Shown piece by piece: positions 1 through 22,682 of a DNA stretch of 24,414 bases (the stretch's first letter is position 1; the number at the start of each line of letters is the position of its first letter). A program made the translations under genes and the position numbers. A model generated the notes under the pieces. The model was not told the origin of the DNA and did not search any database. It saw only the letters and a program-made list of their open reading frames with translations. Origin of the DNA: Parachlamydiales bacterium (GTDB lineage Bacteria > Chlamydiota > Chlamydiia > Chlamydiales > SM23-39); the NCBI GenBank assembly GCA_003151315.1, contig PLXF01000060.1, positions 1 through 24,414 of the forward strand. The letters are read 5' to 3'.

Positions 1-321
1 AAAAGAGTGAGATGCTTTAAAGTTCTCGGCGGTACAAGAAAACGGTATGCCCGCGTTGGTGATATCATTGTCTGTGCGGTTAAAGAAGCAGACCCCAAAG
101 GCGCTGTGAAAAAGGGCGATGTCGTGAAGGCTGTCGTGGTCCGAACGAGAGGTTACATCCGTAGAAACGACGGATCGCTGCTCCGCTTTTATGACAATAG
201 CTGCGTGATCATCGATGATAAAAACAATCCCCGAGGAACTCGTATCTTTGGACCCATAGCCCGCGAAGTTCGCGATGGCGGGTTCGTAAAGATCAGCTCC
301 CTCGCACCGGAAGTCATATAG
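1..321 (+). CDS. rplN: 50S ribosomal protein L14 (5'-truncated by window)
   Basis: Frame 1 reads [11 protein letters not shown]...[15 protein letters not shown]...DNSCVIID...[14 protein letters not shown]...[10 protein letters not shown], which is typical L14. The true start lies upstream of the window. Confidence 0.98.
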
Positions 322-332
322 GAAGAGGAAAC

Positions 333-665
333 ATGAGCAAGTGGATTCGCAAGGGCGATCAAGTGGTAGTCATCGCCGGCAACAATAAAGGCAAGACAGG
401 ACAAGTTCTGTCACGCACAGAAGAGCGCGTTTTAGTGCAAGGGGTCAATATCCGCAAGAAACACTTGCGTAAAACCCAAGAGTCACAAGGCGGCCGCATT
501 GTTGAGATGGAAGTGCCCATACACATATCGAACGTAAACCTCTGTGATAAAGAGGGTAAAGCCTTCCGCGTTCGCGTTAGAAATAGCGCAGAGAACGGCC
601 GCGAGTTAGTTTATAAAGCTGGCGGCGAGGAAATTGGCCACCGTTCGGTCAAAAAACAAGCGTAG
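333..665 (+). CDS. rplX: 50S ribosomal protein L24
   Basis: KOW motif IRKGDQVVVIAGNNKGKTG, plus VQGVNIRKKH and PIHISNV. Position in the spc operon. Confidence 0.97.
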   Translation: MSKWIRKGDQVVVIAGNNKGKTGQVLSRTEERVLVQGVNIRKKHLRKTQESQGGRIVEMEVPIHISNVNLCDKEGKAFRVRVRNSAENGRELVYKAGGEEIGHRSVKKQA

Positions 666-674
666 AGAGAGACC

Positions 675-1208
675 ATGTCGAGATTACAAGAAAAATTAAA
701 AAAAGTTATCGTACCAGAGATACTGTCTCGCCACCCTGAGAGAAATCCCATGGAGACGCCTGTTCTGAAAAAAATTGTGATCAGCATGGGACTTGGAGAA
801 GCTTTAAAAGATAAAAATGCTCTACAGGAGCATAGTGATGAGCTCTCCTTAATCAGCGGACAGAAACCTGTGGTAACCCGATCGAAGAAAGCGATTTCGA
901 ACTTTAAACTGCGAGAAAATCAGCCTGTAGGCTTGATGGTCACATTACGCGGTAAAAGAATGTTTGATTTCTTGGATCGTTTCTGCAATATTAGCTCTCC
1001 TCGTATCCGAGACTTCCGCGGATTTACTCCAAAAGGAGATGGTCGAGGTAATTTTAATTTTGGATTGAACGACCAGCAGATTTTTCCGGAAGTAAACCTA
1101 GACAAAGTAAAAAGAACGCAAGGGATGAACATCACAATTGTGACTACAGCCAAAACCGATGCCGACTGCGTCGAGCTTTTGACCTTGTTAGGCTTCCCCT
1201 TTAAGTAA
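675..1208 (+). CDS. rplE: 50S ribosomal protein L5
   Basis: [58 protein letters not shown]. Confidence 0.98.
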
Positions 1209-9308: not shown

Positions 9309-9317
9309 AATTCCTCT

Positions 9318-9400
<83 letters not shown>

Positions 9401-9507
9401 TCCTTATAATGAATGAGTTATGTAATGTTGCATAACCTCCTAACAACTGATGCAAACCGCTGTGGGCCAAATCTGGGTCACAGCGCAAGAAGTTGGAGGT
9501 TTTACAC

Positions 9508-10578
9508 ATGGCGTATATTGAAACGAGAAGGCACCCCGATGGGTCGAAGACTTATCGCGTACGGATTAGACGTAAGGGGATGCCTGACAAATCAGAAACT
9601 TTTTTCTGCAAATCCAAAGCGCAAGCTTGGGGGCGGAAAAAAGAAGCGGAAGTCTGTGATAAACGGCACTTTCCTCGAAAGGAAGACGAAGAGAGGACAT
9701 TTGCGGATCTCATAGATAAATACATTGGGGTTGAGCTTCCGAAAAAGCCCAAGAGCTACAAGAAGCAGTCTATGCAGCTACTTTGGTTCAAGCGACAGCT
9801 TGGCGACTATTTTTTGGTTTATATTACGACTCCTATGATTGCTGAGCTGAGAGACAAACTCCTTTCTGAGAAACTTCCCAGAGGTAGTAAACGAACTTCC
9901 TCTACTACGAATCGATATCTTGCAGCTCTGAGTCATGTCTACACGGTTGCTGTGAAAGACTGGGGTTGGGTTAATGAGAATCCTGTTCTCAACGTTCGGC
10001 GACCAAGAGAGAACAAGGCAAGAGAACGATTTTTAGAAAAGCATGAGATCGAGTGTCTATTAGGTGACTGTTCAAAAAGCAAAAGTGCCTATATTTATCC
10101 CGTGGTTTTCTTAGCATTAGCTACAGGAGCGAGAAAGGGAGAGCTTCTTGCTCTTAAATGGAGTGACATCGATTTCGCCAGAGCAAGGTTGACGTTTCGC
10201 GATACCAAGAATGGAGAATCTCGATCGATTCATTTGAGCAAACAGTCAATGAAGTGCCTCGAGATGGAAAAATCGAAGAGGGTGATATTTAGCGAATATG
10301 TCTTTCCTACCCGTGATGGGAAGAGGCCCGCTGATATTAAAACTGCTTGGGAGGCTGCTGTAAAGCACGCGAACTTAAGTATCTGTTTTCACACGTTGAG
10401 GCACACGGCAGCTAGTCAATTGGCGATGCGTGGGGCTACTTTACTAGAGCTGGCCGCCATTCTCGGACATAAAACTTTGGCTATGGTAAAAAGGTATAGC
10501 CATTTATCTGTTGCTGCGACAGCTGGCGCTCTTGATCGGATGAATGAAGACTTGCTGGAAGGATCTATATATGCGTGA
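9508..10578 (+). CDS. Tyrosine recombinase / phage-type integrase (356 aa from ATG 9508)
   Basis: Full catalytic set: TGARKGE (R), FRDTKNG (K), FHTLRH (H-x-x-R), LGHK (H), KRYSH (Y). It has an N-terminal arm-binding-like region. A GGAGG RBS precedes ATG 9508, which I prefer to the TTG at 9493. Confidence 0.93.
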   Translation: MAYIETRRHPDGSKTYRVRIRRKGMPDKSETFFCKSKAQAWGRKKEAEVCDKRHFPRKEDEERTFADLIDKYIGVELPKKPKSYKKQSMQLLWFKRQLGDYFLVYITTPMIAELRDKLLSEKLPRGSKRTSSTTNRYLAALSHVYTVAVKDWGWVNENPVLNVRRPRENKARERFLEKHEIECLLGDCSKSKSAYIYPVVFLALATGARKGELLALKWSDIDFARARLTFRDTKNGESRSIHLSKQSMKCLEMEKSKRVIFSEYVFPTRDGKRPADIKTAWEAAVKHANLSICFHTLRHTAASQLAMRGATLLELAAILGHKTLAMVKRYSHLSVAATAGALDRMNEDLLEGSIYA

Positions 10579-11461
10579 CCAATCAATGCTAACAGAATCT
10601 AAAAATGAGGCCGAATTTTCTCCTCAGGGATTGCGCAAACGATTTTCACATGAGGCGTTTTTAGCTCACGCTCAGACGATATTGCCGGAGGGAGTGCTAG
10701 ATGAGTCAAGAAGGCGCTTTCAAGAAGATCGAAAGCGCCTCAATGAGGAAATTAGGCATTTCTGGCGGTCATTTGGCGACATGACTCTTTTGGCGTTGTT
10801 TTCAATTTGGGTGGAAGAACGTCCTGACACAGAGGTTATCGAGAATCGCGAAGCTATTCTAGCGGGGAATTTTATTAAATTCCAGGATGCCTCGGGTGAG
10901 TTTTTGCAAGTACGAGATCTCAAATCTAAGGAGTTCTTGTTAACTCTAGAAAACATACGCTGTCAAGGTGAACTATCTGCTCAAGAGCAAGAGCGGTGGG
11001 TTGAAATCTTTGTAGATTTTCATAATTGGATGTCTCTCCAATCAATCTCTTATATCCCAGAAATCGTTGATCCAGACAAAGAGAGAACTCGCAATCGAGC
11101 ATTGTCTCATGCGGATTTTGTTCGTCTGATTGGCTGTTTAGATGATCGATGTCGTCTTGTATCGAAATTGCTTTATTTTGGCGGCAACCGAACCATTGAG
11201 CAAATAATCGAGATTGATATTGAAAATATTGATTTTGAAAAACATTTTATTTCATTTGATTCAAGCCTCTATTCTTATCCATTGCATGTGTTCCGAGACA
11301 TTCGACGGCTGATTGGATCTCGTGCATCAGGTCAAGTCTTCGTAGGAAGGCAAAATTCCCCGATCAATCCCTCAACGATTTTCAGAAACGTGAAAGAGGC
11401 TGCGGTCGGAATTGGTCTTGGAGATTTATTTTCTCCTAAAATCCTCACTCAAAATCGGTAG
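10571..11461 (+). CDS. Pgp7/Pgp8-like tyrosine-recombinase-fold protein lacking most catalytic residues (296 aa)
   Basis: ATG 10571 overlaps the integrase stop (ATGCGTGA). LLYFGGNRTIEQI is box I-like, followed by IDFEKHFISF, SYP, IGSRASGQVFV and SPKILT. The protein ends before the GH/Tyr region. Confidence 0.7.
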   Translation: MRDQSMLTESKNEAEFSPQGLRKRFSHEAFLAHAQTILPEGVLDESRRRFQEDRKRLNEEIRHFWRSFGDMTLLALFSIWVEERPDTEVIENREAILAGNFIKFQDASGEFLQVRDLKSKEFLLTLENIRCQGELSAQEQERWVEIFVDFHNWMSLQSISYIPEIVDPDKERTRNRALSHADFVRLIGCLDDRCRLVSKLLYFGGNRTIEQIIEIDIENIDFEKHFISFDSSLYSYPLHVFRDIRRLIGSRASGQVFVGRQNSPINPSTIFRNVKEAAVGIGLGDLFSPKILTQNR

Positions 11462-11564
11462 TTTTGTTATTTGGGCTTAGCCTAAATGCGATCTGCTCTC
11501 GCAAGTTCTCTGACATTTATTTTCTCATGTTCCTCTATGGCCGAACTCCTTTTGCACTGTAATA

Positions 11565-11593
11565 TTGCGAATATCATTCCAATTGTGTAAAAT
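11565..11593 (+). promoter_or_regulatory. Putative promoter of the xis-primase unit, overlapped by two palindromes
   Basis: TTGCGA (11565-11570), 17-nt spacer, TAAAAT (11588-11593). Palindromes ATATT-gcg-AATAT (11562-11574) and TGTAAAA-tt-TTTTACA (11586-11601). Confidence 0.5.
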
Positions 11594-11640
11594 TTTTTAC
11601 AGCATCGGTTGTTAGAAGAGGTTGTGAATGAGGAAAATTT

Positions 11641-11904
11641 ATGCAAAAGGAGAGGGAAAGATTCATGAACAGTGAAATTTGTAGAAAAGATGAGGATGTC
11701 TTTGCAAAGACAATTGGTAATTTGGCAGAGCTAAGGTCTTATTGTCGACAAAATCGATGGCCTCGACTTAGTCAATGGCATCATTGGATCTATTCTAAAC
11801 ATCCCATAGCGGCGGCTTGTGTGAAAAAAATCGGGGGTCGATATCTGATCGATTTGGGGGCTTTGACCTCATATATCCAAAGCGCTTCTTTAGAGGAGAG
11901 GTGA
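11641..11904 (+). CDS. Small excisionase/AlpA-like winged-helix DNA-binding protein (alternative start 11665)
   Basis: WP...W++WIY...VKKIGGRYLID pattern typical of xis-like proteins. Located between the integrase module and the primase. Confidence 0.65.
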   Translation: MQKERERFMNSEICRKDEDVFAKTIGNLAELRSYCRQNRWPRLSQWHHWIYSKHPIAAACVKKIGGRYLIDLGALTSYIQSASLEER

Positions 11905-12026: not shown

Positions 12027-14654
12027 ATGTTTATGGCAAGCTATTCTACCAGCGATGATCCTCGCCTTCAAGCAAAACTAGAAAGATCAAGTAATTATAC
12101 CATCTACGATCTTGAACAAGAGTGTCTTTCTCAAATGGCTAGAGATGGAATCCATTTTCCAAAAACAAGACTTGAAACAGATGGGATTTTGCGCCGGTTT
12201 TCAAGAGATCAATGCCAAGATAAGGAAGATGAATTTTATTGGTGTCGATCAGGAGTATCCCAAAATGGAAATCCCTGGTTGAGTTGCTACTATGGAACTT
12301 GGTCTGGTGGAAAAAAAGATTATAAATATAGCAGCTACAGGGGAGATCCAAAATTCTCGCAAATGGAAAGAGAAACCCTCGCTGAGGAGGAGAATCAATG
12401 GAATAAGATTCAAGAGCGGATTCAAAATGCACAGTTAGATTGGGAAAGAGCGTCTGAAGAACCTATTGACACTGGCCATTTGGACTATCTTTCTAAGAAA
12501 ATGGTGGAACGTCACGGTGTAAAATTTAGTAAAAGTAAATTGAAGGAGAGGGCTTCGGTAACAGGCAAAGAGATTTGGGTAGAGTACCCAACTCTGGTCA
12601 TTCCAATTCGAAATATTGAAGGTAGGCTTCAGGGAGTTCAACATATTTTCCCAAGTGGAGAAAAACGAATTCACGGTCTTAAAAAAGGTAATTTTCATGT
12701 GATTGGATCAGTCGGCCCCACTGGCTCTATCTTGATCGGGGAGGGATATGCGACGGTCGCCAGCGTCTATGAGGCAATCAGAGAGCCATCTGTAGTCACA
12801 TTTGATTGCGGTAACTTTGATCCCGTGATTCAAAATCTGAAGAAAATGCATCCTCAACATCGAATCGTCATTATCGGAGATGATGACGCAGAGACGGAGA
12901 GAAAAAACAAAGAGAACCCAGGCAAATTGAAAGCTATAGCTGCCGCTAAAAAGCATCGTTGTAAAGTGATATTTCCGCAATTTCCGGAAGGATTTTATTT
13001 GGGCGGCGGGAGTCTGCCATCAGATTTTAACGATTTGAGAGTCCATTTTGGAATGGAGGAAGTAAAAAAACAGCTCATGCAAGGGATCTCCCAATCCAAA
13101 AATGCAGAGTCTTCTGAAGAAGATTCTGATGGGGCATTCATCATACGTCGAGGAGGAACTCACTTAGCGGCTTCGCGAGGAAGTCTTCTTTTATCTGATC
13201 CTTCTAATGGGATATTCCAGCGAGCTGGTCAGACAGTTCGAATTATCAAGTGTCCTAAATGGCCTCAGCGCAAAGCAGGTCCTATTCAGCGTCAAAACGA
13301 GTCGTTGATCATTGTGCAGGCCCAAGAAATTGAAATTGTACGAATGTTATCCGAAAAGGCGCTTTGGAAGAAATTTGATGCGCGATCAAATGGGTACATA
13401 CGAACTGATTTTCCTGATAAAGCTGCAAAAATGATTCTTAGCGAAAGGGGTGTTAACCTCCCGGTTCTCACCGGATTTGTTAATTCACCGACGCTAAGAG
13501 TAGATGGATCGATATTAGAAAAGCCAGGATATGATCTTGAGTCGGGTCTTTTTTTCGATCCTTGCGGCGCTGTATTTCCTCCGATTCCAGTTTATCCGAC
13601 AAAAGATCAAGCAGTTGAGAACTTGTTGCTTCTAAGAGATATGGTGAAAGACTTTCCCTTTGAAAATAAAGTAAGCGAATCTGTGGCAATTGCTCAAATC
13701 ATGACGGGGGCGGTGCGTCGCTCGTTACCTCTTTCTCCTGTATTTGGGAATTCAGCTCCTGTTATGGAATCGGGAAAAACGCTCCTAGTTGATATCAATG
13801 CCATGCTCTACACGGGAAAAAATGCGGTTTGTATTTCTCCTGCTAAAACCGAGGAAGAAAACAGAAAGAGGTTATTTAGTGTCTTGCTGGCAGGTGATCT
13901 GATTGTTTGCATAGATAATGTCAGCGAGCCTTTTGAGAGTGATGCAATGTGTACGATTGTGACGAGCCAGTATTGGCAAGAAAGGTTGTTGGGGACAAAT
14001 ACAAAGGTTGAGATTCCAACCAACGCTCTTTTTATTTTTACTGGGAATAATCTGGTCTTTCGAGGAGATATGAGCACTAGAGTTCTTATGTGTCAAATAG
14101 ATCCGAGATGCGAACGTCCAGGCGAACGCGTTTTCAGTCGTGATTTAAGAAAGTACGTCCCAGAGAATCGAGGCGCGCTCGCTTGCGCTGCCCCAACAAT
14201 CATACGGGCCTTTATAGCTGCTGGGAGTCCAGATCAGGGGCTTCCTCCCTATCGATTGTTTAGTGAATGGTCTCATTGGATTAGATCGTCGCTTGCGTGG
14301 TTGGATATGCCCGATCCATATCAAAGCTCGAAAATTGCGGCGGATAGCGATCCAATCAAGAAGCAATTAAAAGTGCTATTTGAAATTAGCTATGCAATTA
14401 TTCCCCTGTCGTTTACTGCAAAAGAACTATGCGTTATTGCGAATGACCCTATTCGTAGAGAGTCCGATAAAAACGTTCAAGCGCTCTATGATGCACTTCT
14501 TGAATTTGCTTCAGATCGCGAAGGGAAAATTAGTTCGATCGTCCTAGGCAACAAAATTCGTCAACATAAGGGACGTCAAATTAATGGATATCGGCTTGAG
14601 GCTGTTGGGGAGGATAGGGGTGGCGCTGTCTTGTGGAAAATTTTGAAAATTTAG
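12027..14654 (+). CDS. Primase-helicase replication protein (TraC/P4-alpha-like Toprim domain plus C-terminal P-loop helicase)
   Basis: Toprim motifs IGEGYATVAS, FDCGN, IIGDDD, NPG and SDFNDL. The C-terminal ATPase has APVMESGKTLL (Walker A-like), VCIDNV (Walker B), FTGNN and TRVL. Confidence 0.85.
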   Translation: MFMASYSTSDDPRLQAKLERSSNYTIYDLEQECLSQMARDGIHFPKTRLETDGILRRFSRDQCQDKEDEFYWCRSGVSQNGNPWLSCYYGTWSGGKKDYKYSSYRGDPKFSQMERETLAEEENQWNKIQERIQNAQLDWERASEEPIDTGHLDYLSKKMVERHGVKFSKSKLKERASVTGKEIWVEYPTLVIPIRNIEGRLQGVQHIFPSGEKRIHGLKKGNFHVIGSVGPTGSILIGEGYATVASVYEAIREPSVVTFDCGNFDPVIQNLKKMHPQHRIVIIGDDDAETERKNKENPGKLKAIAAAKKHRCKVIFPQFPEGFYLGGGSLPSDFNDLRVHFGMEEVKKQLMQGISQSKNAESSEEDSDGAFIIRRGGTHLAASRGSLLLSDPSNGIFQRAGQTVRIIKCPKWPQRKAGPIQRQNESLIIVQAQEIEIVRMLSEKALWKKFDARSNGYIRTDFPDKAAKMILSERGVNLPVLTGFVNSPTLRVDGSILEKPGYDLESGLFFDPCGAVFPPIPVYPTKDQAVENLLLLRDMVKDFPFENKVSESVAIAQIMTGAVRRSLPLSPVFGNSAPVMESGKTLLVDINAMLYTGKNAVCISPAKTEEENRKRLFSVLLAGDLIVCIDNVSEPFESDAMCTIVTSQYWQERLLGTNTKVEIPTNALFIFTGNNLVFRGDMSTRVLMCQIDPRCERPGERVFSRDLRKYVPENRGALACAAPTIIRAFIAAGSPDQGLPPYRLFSEWSHWIRSSLAWLDMPDPYQSSKIAADSDPIKKQLKVLFEISYAIIPLSFTAKELCVIANDPIRRESDKNVQALYDALLEFASDREGKISSIVLGNKIRQHKGRQINGYRLEAVGEDRGGAVLWKILKI

Positions 14655-21186: not shown

Positions 21187-21231
21187 TGTAACATAGGCAC
21201 TCATTGACTTTTAGTGAGTGCCTGTGTTACA
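21187..21231 (+). promoter_or_regulatory. 19-bp inverted repeat: probable AbiEi operator overlapping the abiE promoter
   Basis: TGTAACATAGGCACTCATT-gactttt-AGTGAGTGCCTGTGTTACA (17/19 match). TTGACT -35-like hexamer at 21204-21209. The repeat ends 9 nt before ATG 21241. Confidence 0.75.
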
Positions 21232-21240
21232 CATAGAAAC

Positions 21241-21837
21241 ATGAAACGATCTAAGTATCAGCACCTTCTTGATCCGCTTCTCAAAGAGTCTATATTCAAG
21301 GCCAGTGAGGCTCGCTCTAGGGGCATTCCCCCTCGAATGCTTGCGCATTTTTGTCAGAAAGGACTGATTGAAAGGGTCGGGCGCGGGCTATATCGGGTAG
21401 CCGAGGCTTCTAGCGGAGTCAACCTTGATTTTGAAGAGCTTGTGCTAACCGCTTCGAGTATCCCCAGAGGGGTTGTTTGTCTCGTCTCAGCCCTTTGCTA
21501 TTATAATTTGACCGATCAGATCATGAGGGAATATTGGATTGCCATTCCCAACACCGATAAGAGCCCGAAGCGTCCCCATACCCGAATCGTTCGAATGAGG
21601 AATATGAGTCTCGGACTAACAACCGTAAAGATGGGGAAATACGAGGTAAAAATCTTTGATCGTGAGAGGACTGTTGTCGACTCATTTCGATATTTGAGCG
21701 ACGAAATTGCCATCAAGGCTCTTCAAGCCTATTTACAACCTTTTGGCGAAAAGAAGGCAGACCTGCCAAAGCTTTCAAGATACGCCAAAGCATTAAGAAT
21801 AAATATTAATAAATATATTGTGGCTTTAACAACATGA
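21241..21837 (+). CDS. abiEi: Type IV TA antitoxin AbiEi (wHTH plus C-terminal domain)
   Basis: GLIERVGRGLYR wHTH wing, VVCLVSALCYYNLTDQI, KIFDRERTVVDSFRY. ATG 21241 is preferred over GTG 21214, which lies inside the operator. Confidence 0.85.
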   Translation: MKRSKYQHLLDPLLKESIFKASEARSRGIPPRMLAHFCQKGLIERVGRGLYRVAEASSGVNLDFEELVLTASSIPRGVVCLVSALCYYNLTDQIMREYWIAIPNTDKSPKRPHTRIVRMRNMSLGLTTVKMGKYEVKIFDRERTVVDSFRYLSDEIAIKALQAYLQPFGEKKADLPKLSRYAKALRININKYIVALTT

Positions 21838-22682
21838 CATCTGCATTAGAACAATCATTTAAAAAACGACTACAGCTCATTGCCAAGGAAAGAAACATAA
21901 CTCCTGCTGAAGTTTGGCAAAACGTCATCACAGAAAGATTTCTCGTGCGCCTATGCCGATCGCCTTACCACTCACATTTTGTCCTGAAAGGGGGAACGCT
22001 ATTGGCTCGGTATGTGGACATTGGTAGAGAAACCAAAGACTTGGATTTCACGATCCAACGACTCAGCAACGAAATCAGCGCCCTGCAGAAGACTTTTAAT
22101 GATATTGTACGAGTTGAGATTGAGGACGGGTTTGTTTTTATGAATCCAGTCGTCGCTCCTCTCGAGCATTTTCACATGGAGTATCCCGGTGCTCACGTCA
22201 AAATAGAGGTTCGTTTTGGCAAAGCCAAATTTCCTCTCTTCATCGATCTAGGATTTGGTGATCTGGTTCAGGTACGTGAGAAAGAGTTTTTGCTTCTCTC
22301 AAGTTCCAAAGGGCCTTTGTTCGAACCTTCGCTAAAGGTAAATTGCTATCCAATGGAATTTGTTTTCGCAGAGAAGCTTGAGACGGCAATCTTTCGAGGG
22401 GCCGACAACAGCCGGATGAAAGACTTTCACGATCTTTACACTCTTGCGAGTTCAGAGAAAATGTTAAATGGGAAGGATGCAGTCAAGGCGATTCAGTTGG
22501 TGTTTGAACATCGGAAGACGCCGCTTAGATTACCGATGCAGTTCGATTCTTCAGCGCTTGAAGCGTTGCAGCAATACTGGGGACGTTATCATAAAACGGC
22601 AACAGTGTCGGCCCGTTTGCCGGATCAAATTACAGAAGTGATCGAGACCATTAATGGAATCCTTGACAAAATGAATTGTTGA
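21834..22682 (+). CDS. abiEii: Type IV TA toxin AbiEii (DUF1814 nucleotidyltransferase)
   Basis: ERFLVRL, FVLKGGTLL, RETKDLDF, IDLGFGD, AEKLE, NSRMKDFHDLY. ATGA overlap with abiEi. Confidence 0.9.
   Translation: MTSALEQSFKKRLQLIAKERNITPAEVWQNVITERFLVRLCRSPYHSHFVLKGGTLLARYVDIGRETKDLDFTIQRLSNEISALQKTFNDIVRVEIEDGFVFMNPVVAPLEHFHMEYPGAHVKIEVRFGKAKFPLFIDLGFGDLVQVREKEFLLLSSSKGPLFEPSLKVNCYPMEFVFAEKLETAIFRGADNSRMKDFHDLYTLASSEKMLNGKDAVKAIQLVFEHRKTPLRLPMQFDSSALEALQQYWGRYHKTATVSARLPDQITEVIETINGILDKMNC

Follow-up and report, generated by a model that had tools for sequence, protein, structure and literature searches.

A truncated, inactive tyrosine-recombinase family related to the chlamydial plasmid integrases Pgp7 and Pgp8, encoded beside an active integrase in a tRNA-Leu island

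According to passages of Köstlbacher et al. (PMC7846284), the integrase-like genes pgp7 and pgp8 are found only on the plasmids and chromosomes of chlamydiae; a truncated, inactive branch related to them is not described in the passages of that paper that were searched. In Chlamydia psittaci, regulatory phenotypes have been reported for both Pgp7 and Pgp8, and Pgp8 is dispensable (PMC13711795); maintenance phenotypes of the two proteins have been reported as well. Outside the chlamydiae, MrpR was found to be a repressor with a recombinase fold and without recombinase activity (PMC10516654). The subject of this study is a stretch of 24,414 nt from a Parachlamydiales bacterium (assembly GCA_003151315.1, contig PLXF01000060.1, positions 1 to 24,414 of the forward strand; hereafter the window), in which a 296-aa protein with a predicted tyrosine-recombinase fold is encoded directly behind an active tyrosine integrase (Int) of a chromosomal island. 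This protein, called here the dead recombinase, has lost nearly the whole catalytic machinery, belongs to a large chlamydial family that ends at the same point (the dead family), and appears as a sister of Pgp7/Pgp8 in sequence and structure comparisons.

Besides Pgp7/Pgp8, three described systems come closest to this arrangement. Two phage master repressors, MrpR (YopR) from the Bacillus phage SPbeta and phi3T SroF, resemble the dead recombinase in their recombinase fold, their lost catalytic residues and their location on mobile elements (PMC10516654; bioRxiv 10.1101/2025.11.27.690993). On the other hand, MrpR is of full length and keeps the catalytic Lys and Tyr, whereas the dead family ends before the Tyr region; additionally, MrpR acts by DNA-binding repression and not as an enzyme, while the dead recombinase is known here from its sequence and predicted fold. 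Streptococci harbor a XerD-like protein without the catalytic C-terminus, which is also a shortened tyrosine-recombinase paralogue (about 240 aa) conserved within its lineage, and one such protein (A8AYT9) is among the fold matches of the dead recombinase. Unlike the dead recombinase, it belongs to the Xer clade and is encoded at a chromosomal housekeeping locus outside mobile elements; the corresponding NCBIfam model (NF002685) gave no match to the dead recombinase, and a literature search on descriptions of the streptococcal XerD-like protein or of a 'pseudo-recombinase' returned nothing directly comparable. The third system is Stl of the staphylococcal pathogenicity islands, which is encoded between int and the xis/pri-rep module and is highly divergent among related islands. 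The dead recombinase gene is a positional analogue, as the island runs int, dead gene, xis-like gene, primase, but Stl proteins are helix-turn-helix (HTH) repressors whose genes point away from the replication module and are transcribed divergently to it, whereas the dead recombinase has a recombinase fold and its gene is co-oriented with all island genes.

The open reading frame (ORF) of the dead recombinase opens with the ATG at 10571 and closes with a TAG; an alternative in-frame ATG lies upstream at 10544, and the start at 10571 has a ribosome-binding site (RBS) of the GGAAGG/GAGGAG type that is conserved in the closest relative (L058). The original prediction, made by eye from the DNA, had reported a frame of 296 codons overlapping the int stop, which is confirmed with an overlap of 8 nt. 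With the Pfam Phage_integrase model (PF00589) the protein reaches 16.1 bits, below the gathering threshold of 27.1, and with the NCBIfam XerA model residues 114-291 match positions 35-217 of the 263 in the model, which leaves the last quarter of the enzyme, at the C-terminus, without a counterpart. The box I arginine (Arg-I) is R207, which is kept here and in the 16 closest relatives. In the multiple alignment, a 9-residue deletion with respect to Pgp8-type proteins removes the beta2-beta3 hairpin with the catalytic Lys, the remaining hairpin turn carrying no conserved Lys. The H-x-x-R position reads K290-I-L-T293 (S-P-K-I-L-T aligned to T-P-H-V-L-R-A of the Pgp8 type), and other subfamilies of the dead family read TFKDF or ITPGxLL there. 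The C-terminus lies 4 residues past L292, the Leu of SPKIL, so that His/Trp-III and the Tyr nucleophile are absent, whereas Pgp8-type proteins run about 45 residues further, through GH and Tyr. It had been proposed that box I Arg was kept, the Lys hairpin deleted and H-x-x-R changed to K-x-x-T, and that the protein stopped before the GH and Tyr region without leaving a remnant; the alignments bear this out, as does a frame scan that found no GH...Y remnant in any forward frame of 11441-11660. With the hairpin Lys and the Tyr nucleophile lost, and His-II, Arg-II and His/Trp-III gone as well, the protein can be judged unable to cut or join DNA, and with catalysis excluded it would have to act by binding. 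A split enzyme, completed by a C-terminus from another small ORF, was rejected because Lys, His-II and Arg-II of this half are gone too.

The AlphaFold2 (AF2) model of the dead recombinase, computed with a 94-sequence alignment, is a confident one (predicted local distance difference test, pLDDT, 93.2; predicted template modelling score, pTM, 0.85) and comprises two domains, a core-binding domain and a catalytic domain of which the first two thirds are present. Its Foldseek and VIA-align matches comprise XerA, IntI4, XerH, Tn1549 Int, lambda Int and Cre, and the recombinase-fold repressors MrpR (8a0a) and SroF (9rgl) are also among them. The catalytic-domain part, residues 174-296, can be superposed on residues 135-297 of Cre; Z is 10-13 for Cre, XerA, IntI4, XerH and lambda Int, and the root-mean-square deviation 2.3-3.2 Å. 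The model stops just past helix K, which bears His289 and Arg292 in Cre, and is without the helices of Cre Trp315 and Tyr324 and without the swapped C-terminal helix. The window copy is acidic, with an isoelectric point (pI) of 5.8 and a net charge of -6; the family median pI is 8.2 and that of the integrases 9.9.

Kinship with Pgp7/Pgp8 was found by pairwise, profile, structural and phylogenetic comparisons. BLASTP against Pgp8 of the Chlamydia trachomatis plasmid pCTA gave 25% identity over 138 residues (4e-08, pairwise), and hhalign a probability of 95.6 to both Pgp8 and Pgp7. These alignments with pCTA Pgp8/Pgp7 pair the proteins as stated in the original prediction, namely FGGNRTIEQI with QGGKRSSEVL, IDFEKHFISF with ICFQQATISF, SYP with TYP, IGSRASGQVFV with IGQRRGFVFV and SPKIL with TPHVL, and the N-terminal W..F..L..W helix aligns with Pgp8 and Pgp7 as well. 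With a hidden Markov model (HMM) of the dead family, plasmid integrases of environmental chlamydiae (329 aa) reach 104-112 bits, C. trachomatis Pgp8 (CtPgp8) 80 and CtPgp7 54, in contrast to 17 and 15 bits for the genome's own XerC/D-like proteins and 9 for the adjacent Int. In a structural search of the Swiss-Prot part of AFDB the top 8 matches were Pgp8/Pgp7 of four Chlamydia strains or entries, above all XerC/XerA, and in the ESM Atlas the 'Virulence plasmid integrase-D family' ranked first. An IQ-TREE phylogeny of 28 proteins sampled from the dead family and 12 of the Pgp type, together with 5 island integrases, 2 Xer and 2 other recombinases, showed the dead family as monophyletic (support 95/98), the Pgp clade as monophyletic (99/96) and the two joined with 100/99, the dead family not being nested within the Pgp clade. 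Because profile scores, structural ranking and tree agree, the truncation can be assigned a single origin and the dead family taken as the sister group of Pgp7/Pgp8, apart from XerC/D and from the neighbouring Int. The predicted profile similarity to Pgp7/8 is in this way upheld by HMM, hhalign, structural ranking and tree; of the further proposal that the gene derives from the chlamydial plasmid, what stands is a sister-group relation.

The two groups share the N-terminal helix, the core-binding domain and the scaffold of the catalytic domain, and both are confined or almost confined to Chlamydiota (for Pgp7/8, PMC7846284). They differ in that in Pgp8-type proteins (305-335 aa) the catalytic set of R, hairpin K, H-x-x-R, GH and Y is retained, whereas the dead family has the 9-aa hairpin deletion, no H-x-x-R and the earlier stop; moreover, the dead recombinase is not plasmid-borne and is encoded in a chromosomal island beside a different, active integrase. 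In CtPgp7 (L002, which is pCTA; 25-942, minus strand) the catalytic motifs are degenerate, with TPRVLR for TPHVLR and S-C-L-S in place of the T-G-H of Pgp8. In the clade formed by Pgp7/8 and the dead family, decay of catalysis may therefore have taken place more than once.

A word-index search returned 17 homologues of 266-302 aa, and an exhaustive HMMER search 134 cluster representatives (50% clustering), 109 of them with E<1e-10; the 134 representatives are nearly all 285-310 aa long, align through to their last residues and come almost all from Chlamydiota. The tail past the column aligned to L292 measures 4 residues in 50 of the 94 aligned members and at most 7 in 80 of them. Box I Arg is retained in just 47/94, many others reading YFGAP-S, so that it cannot be counted among the conserved features of the family; the invariant or near-invariant residues are R130, E141, D167, H239, F257, Y202 and P237, none of them at a catalytic position. 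D169, R176 and R193 are further conserved residues. With the closest relative, L058 (78% identity), the ratio of nonsynonymous to synonymous substitutions (dN/dS) is 0.08-0.14, an approximate value since dS is near saturation, and the DNA directly past the stop codon is no longer alignable between the two. Two integrase-less paralogues in one genome gave a dN/dS of 0.16 with an unsaturated dS of 0.41. A few relatives (G158, G190) carry internal stops, which indicates that unused copies decay. By these measures the dead recombinase is kept by strong purifying selection, in line with the earlier claim of selection over random decay (dN/dS near 0.1, homologues cut at the same point), and full-length, intact close homologues, which would have spoken for a copy truncated only here, were not found, all homologues being truncated alike. 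The split of the L058 gene (about 838-906) into calls of 64 and 186 aa is due to a run of N (a scaffold gap) and not to a frameshift.

The distribution of the family within Chlamydiota is patchy: of 300 genomes sampled, 25 contain it at E<1e-30, and it was not found in the two sampled congeners of the window organism. A GTDB-wide scan gave 30 loci, nearly all in chlamydial metagenome-assembled genomes (MAGs), one MAG having five copies. MAG CAWGYH01 carries at least five members. Public records name the members 'hypothetical protein' or 'integrase'. No match was found by tblastn against PLSDB plasmids at E<=0.01, a database too large for such weak pairwise similarity, and the PHROGs hold no family matching the dead recombinase or the small neighbouring protein orf87.

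In about two thirds of the loci, the dead gene lies directly 3' of an orthologous integrase gene (43-59% identity), and as a rule the start of the one overlaps the stop of the other (by 8-23 nt in most syntenic loci). An orf87 orthologue (50-68% identity) follows downstream in the closer loci, the order Int, dead recombinase, orf87, primase is recurrent, and one such island occupies the same chromosomal site in another species. The remaining third of the loci has no adjacent integrase, and the dead gene stands there singly or in tandem; in five integrase-less loci the next protein has a DnaG-type zinc ribbon. At L032, L033, L035, L039, L041 and L046 a CHC2 DnaG-type zinc-ribbon protein is encoded 56-204 nt downstream, one of which adds an FRG domain. 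Since integrase-less copies remain under purifying selection, the function of the dead recombinase can be said, on these gene neighbourhoods, to need no cis-encoded integrase. Over 11 syntenic loci, mean pairwise identity is 58% for Int, 58% for orf87 and 30% for the dead recombinase. Int and dead-recombinase distances are correlated (Mantel r 0.77, 17 loci), as expected because the genes are linked.

The features of the island are collected in Table 1. It is preceded in the window by a chlamydial ribosomal-protein/secY/rpoA/L17/GAPDH block, after which come the tRNA gene and the co-oriented run of integrase, dead recombinase, orf87 and primase. The same tRNA-Leu is also located upstream of the Int/dead pair in relatives. 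As to a right attachment site (attR), the search of the window downstream revealed no second tRNA-Leu 3' end (<=3 mismatches allowed) and no direct repeat of 9341-9495. None of the catalytic residues of the integrase, namely R214, K239, H300, R303, H326 and Y335 (Arg-I, hairpin Lys, H-x-x-R, GH and Tyr), varies among 17 orthologues. Its listed start is the TTG at 9493; the ATG at 9508, reading MAYIETRR, is likely to be the true start because the N-terminus MAxIE.R is conserved and GGAGG lies nine bases upstream. The TATTGCGAA box of the predicted promoter is present in all related intergenic regions (11 loci) and is kept between the window and L058 although the flanks differ.

Table 1. Features of the island in the window (positions in nt of the window)
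Feature	Position	Strand	Basis or remark
tRNA-Leu(UAA), integration target, left island end	9317..9403	+	ARAGORN
Inverted repeat, left arm, about 40-55 nt upstream of int	9440..9453	.	cross-locus repeat scan
Active tyrosine integrase of the island	9493..10578	+	Pfam Phage_integrase 8e-31 plus Int_N
Stop/start overlap of integrase and dead gene, 8 nt, ATGCGTGA	10571..10578	+	integrase TGA at 10576-10578
Dead recombinase, 296 aa, C-terminally truncated, tyrosine-recombinase fold, sister to Pgp7/Pgp8	10571..11461	+	family analysis (see text)
Predicted sigma-70-like promoter, TTGCGA-17-TAAAAT, before the orf87-primase module	11565..11593	+	consensus scan
Inverted repeat, right arm, 5' leader of orf87	11602..11615	.	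cross-locus repeat scan
orf87, small winged-helix protein, 87 codons	11641..11904	+	cross-locus conservation, predicted fold
Primase/replication protein, 875 aa	12027..14654	+	PHROG DNA primase families 4e-54 and 9e-94; Toprim_3

L001, the related island that occupies this chromosomal site in the other species, carries a gene of the HTH_3/HTH_19/HTH_31 (cI/Cro) type at 14072-14470, and its replication genes are a DnaB-like helicase plus a Toprim protein, replacing the single 875-aa primase. To judge from their gene content, cargo and replication modules are interchangeable among these islands. Further along the window, downstream of a transketolase operon, an AbiEi antitoxin/AbiEii nucleotidyltransferase toxin pair (type IV toxin-antitoxin system) is found at 21214-22682. 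In a moss metagenome run (X1), several Logan unitigs end or branch within 9443-9537, and one 2.5-kb contig matches 9467-9537 only and diverges beyond; this branching suggests co-existing related elements or strains with a common int leader. Among the public runs listed as containing the sequence, none was an RNA run.

The statement in the original prediction that no cI-like HTH gene is present has to be amended, since a DNA-binding candidate adjoins the dead gene in the form of orf87, a small winged-helix protein of the excisionase/AlpA type. Its fold is predicted (AF2) as a beta-alpha-alpha-beta-beta winged helix, its consensus is WPRLPQWHHWIY...KKIGGRYLIDL, and it shows a weak fold likeness to lambda Xis, TorI and the P2 DNA-binding protein; weak HTH_17 matches occur in 6 of 18 members and no Pfam family is reached above threshold. 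The homologues begin near residue 20, the window copy having an N-terminal extension of about 20 codons, and the real start may lie at 11665 or later. From its predicted fold, orf87 is a probable excisionase/AlpA-type factor and a better excisionase candidate than the dead recombinase.

An inverted repeat of 14-33 nt was detected around the int/dead pair in 10 loci (L001, L004-L007, L009-L011, L026 and L029), with scores of 14-23 against at most 12 in shuffles; the window's own repeat scores 11, no better than the best shuffle. The left arms are located 39-52 nt upstream of int and the right arms on the leader or ribosome-binding region of orf87, the window's right arm lying about 90 nt upstream of the homologous orf87 start. 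The window's repeat falls partly inside the stretches 9401-9500 and 11560-11605 that the original prediction had named. The repeat consists of a CCTCCTAAC core and a locus-specific variable distal box, and mismatches cluster between both. An active crossover site at the repeat is disfavoured by this clustering of arm mismatches at mid-site, and RNA pairing of the arms found no bias in its favour, 8 transition mismatches being compatible with G-U pairs and 5 incompatible. Logan contigs of four runs (moss, wastewater, bioreactor and cave) were colinear and contained no inversion and no strand-switch joints, although such contigs cannot exclude rare inversion variants. The repeat fits best as a pair of sites, one at attL and one in the orf87 leader, that would serve an orf87-type factor or Int; such a pair would resemble those of the dual-site excisionase-repressors Apl and Cox. 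Between the left arm and the int start, a quasi-palindromic element is located at 9457-9485 (CCGCTGTGGGCC-AAATC-TGGGTCACAGCG), which appears as TGGGCC N5 GGGTC in all related loci. This element could be an Int core-type site, an operator site or a hairpin.

Regarding function, the dead recombinase is tentatively seen as a non-catalytic regulator of the excision/replication module of its element, a reading put forward by analogy and held with less than even confidence. The protein would be produced along with the integrase, both from the leftward-proximal operon, and would control the adjacent promoter-driven module (the orf87 winged-helix protein and the primase), probably by DNA binding through the retained core-binding domain and a partial catalytic-domain clamp, in the manner of MrpR/YopR and SroF. 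A regulator is favoured because the dead gene is placed between int and a xis-like gene, because the protein diverges fast and in an element-specific way, about two-fold faster than Int and orf87, and because the downstream primase-type gene is constant whether or not an integrase is present. It is further favoured by the precedent of MrpR/SroF (PMC10516654) and by C. psittaci, in which Pgp7/8 have been reported to show regulatory phenotypes (PMC13711795). Position, divergence and primase pairing are better explained by a control protein specific to the element than by a subunit for recombination.

Several observations weigh against a regulator of this kind. No DNA-binding site (operator) for the dead recombinase was identified. 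Variation of the inverted repeat, the only clear repeated site at the flanks of the pair, does not follow that of the protein (Mantel r 0.125, p 0.17), the L004 and L011 repeats share 90% of the variable box while their dead recombinases are 27% identical, and the repeat is absent from integrase-less loci. The acidity of this copy, in a family that is itself only mildly basic, is not what a DNA clamp usually shows, and it would allow for a role in protein binding. The gene shares the orientation of int and is coupled to it in translation, unlike the usual separately transcribed genes of classic repressors. Finally, there is no sequence relation to MrpR, as no Pfam MrpR_C_cat match appeared at E<=1.

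The dead recombinase might instead be a partner or modulator of the integrase, that is, a non-catalytic subunit binding the island Int or one half of an att site, either as a dominant-negative brake that keeps the integrated state or as an architectural or specificity subunit of the intasome (compare the XerC/XerD and Tn554 TnpA/TnpB pairs). Coupled synthesis, implied by the 8-23-nt overlaps with int in most syntenic loci, would suit such a role, and so would the co-inheritance of Int and dead recombinase seen in their correlated distances, though linkage alone would suffice for it. The core-binding domain makes subunit contacts in recombinase tetramers, and it is retained whole in the predicted model; the acidic dead copy, in addition, stands beside a strongly basic Int. 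Against these points, about a third of the loci lack an adjacent integrase and their dead genes are intact under purifying selection, the C-terminal helix that tyrosine recombinases donate to a neighbouring subunit is absent, and the nearest relatives of the protein are Pgp7/8 and not the partner Int, so that an interface would need to evolve between distant paralogues. When Int (alignment A3) and the dead recombinase (A4) were predicted as a complex, the score was 0.00 and gave no verdict, which is evidence neither way. On balance a partner role is considered rather unlikely.

Lower still is the chance assigned to a replication or maintenance factor for the excised element, which in a Pgp8-like fashion would mark the origin or would load or regulate the primase-helicase without catalysis. 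Such a factor would agree with the most constant neighbour of the dead gene, a primase-type gene (the 875-aa primase here, DnaB plus Toprim or a DnaG zinc-ribbon protein elsewhere), and with the degenerate catalytic motifs of CtPgp7 (TPRVLR; GH to CL). It agrees poorly with the dispensability of Pgp8 in C. psittaci (PMC13711795) and with the finding of no origin-like repeats near the dead gene.

A recombination directionality factor (RDF), that is, an excisionase derived from a recombinase, is very improbable. The dead gene does adjoin int, a common place for xis genes, but the small, highly conserved winged-helix protein orf87 (80 aa) is a much better candidate, the repeat arms lie at its ribosome-binding region and near attL, known RDFs are small and basic whereas the dead recombinase has 296 aa and is acidic, and integrase-less copies persist. 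A recently truncated, functionless pseudogene of a Pgp8-like integrase, to which the missing C-terminal third of the enzyme and the occasional relatives with internal stops might point, is refuted by the same stop position over more than 90 diverse homologues, by a dN/dS of about 0.1, by the confident fold prediction and by the monophyly of a family with a long internal history.

The dead family is well supported as a new branch of the tyrosine-recombinase superfamily, a truncated and inactive sister of Pgp7/8. Beside MrpR/SroF, it would be a second and independent case of a tyrosine-recombinase scaffold in a non-enzymatic role on mobile elements, reached here through truncation, and the module of Int, dead recombinase, winged-helix protein and primase offers a marker for small mobile elements of environmental chlamydiae. 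A bolder proposal, given here as a speculation with a minor share of the probability, is that the whole superclade of Pgp7/8 and the dead family consists mainly of non-catalytic regulators of DNA transactions, with the truncated branch as the master control or immunity protein of undescribed, small, primase-bearing, satellite-like chlamydial elements. If this were true, no strand exchange would be needed for Pgp8 to act in maintaining the plasmid, nor for the expression phenotypes seen with Pgp7 and Pgp8. The family-specific invariant residues R130, E141, D167, D169 and H239 could, on this speculative view, even be the signature of a novel site for binding or catalysis that has nothing to do with recombination. 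The reason why chlamydial plasmids carry two integrase-like genes, and the role of Pgp7/Pgp8, have been open questions since these plasmids were sequenced. A sister family that is without the catalytic elements and yet under strong selection implies that the lineage has a selectable activity other than recombination, and the dead family would provide a natural separation-of-function variant in which that activity can be studied.

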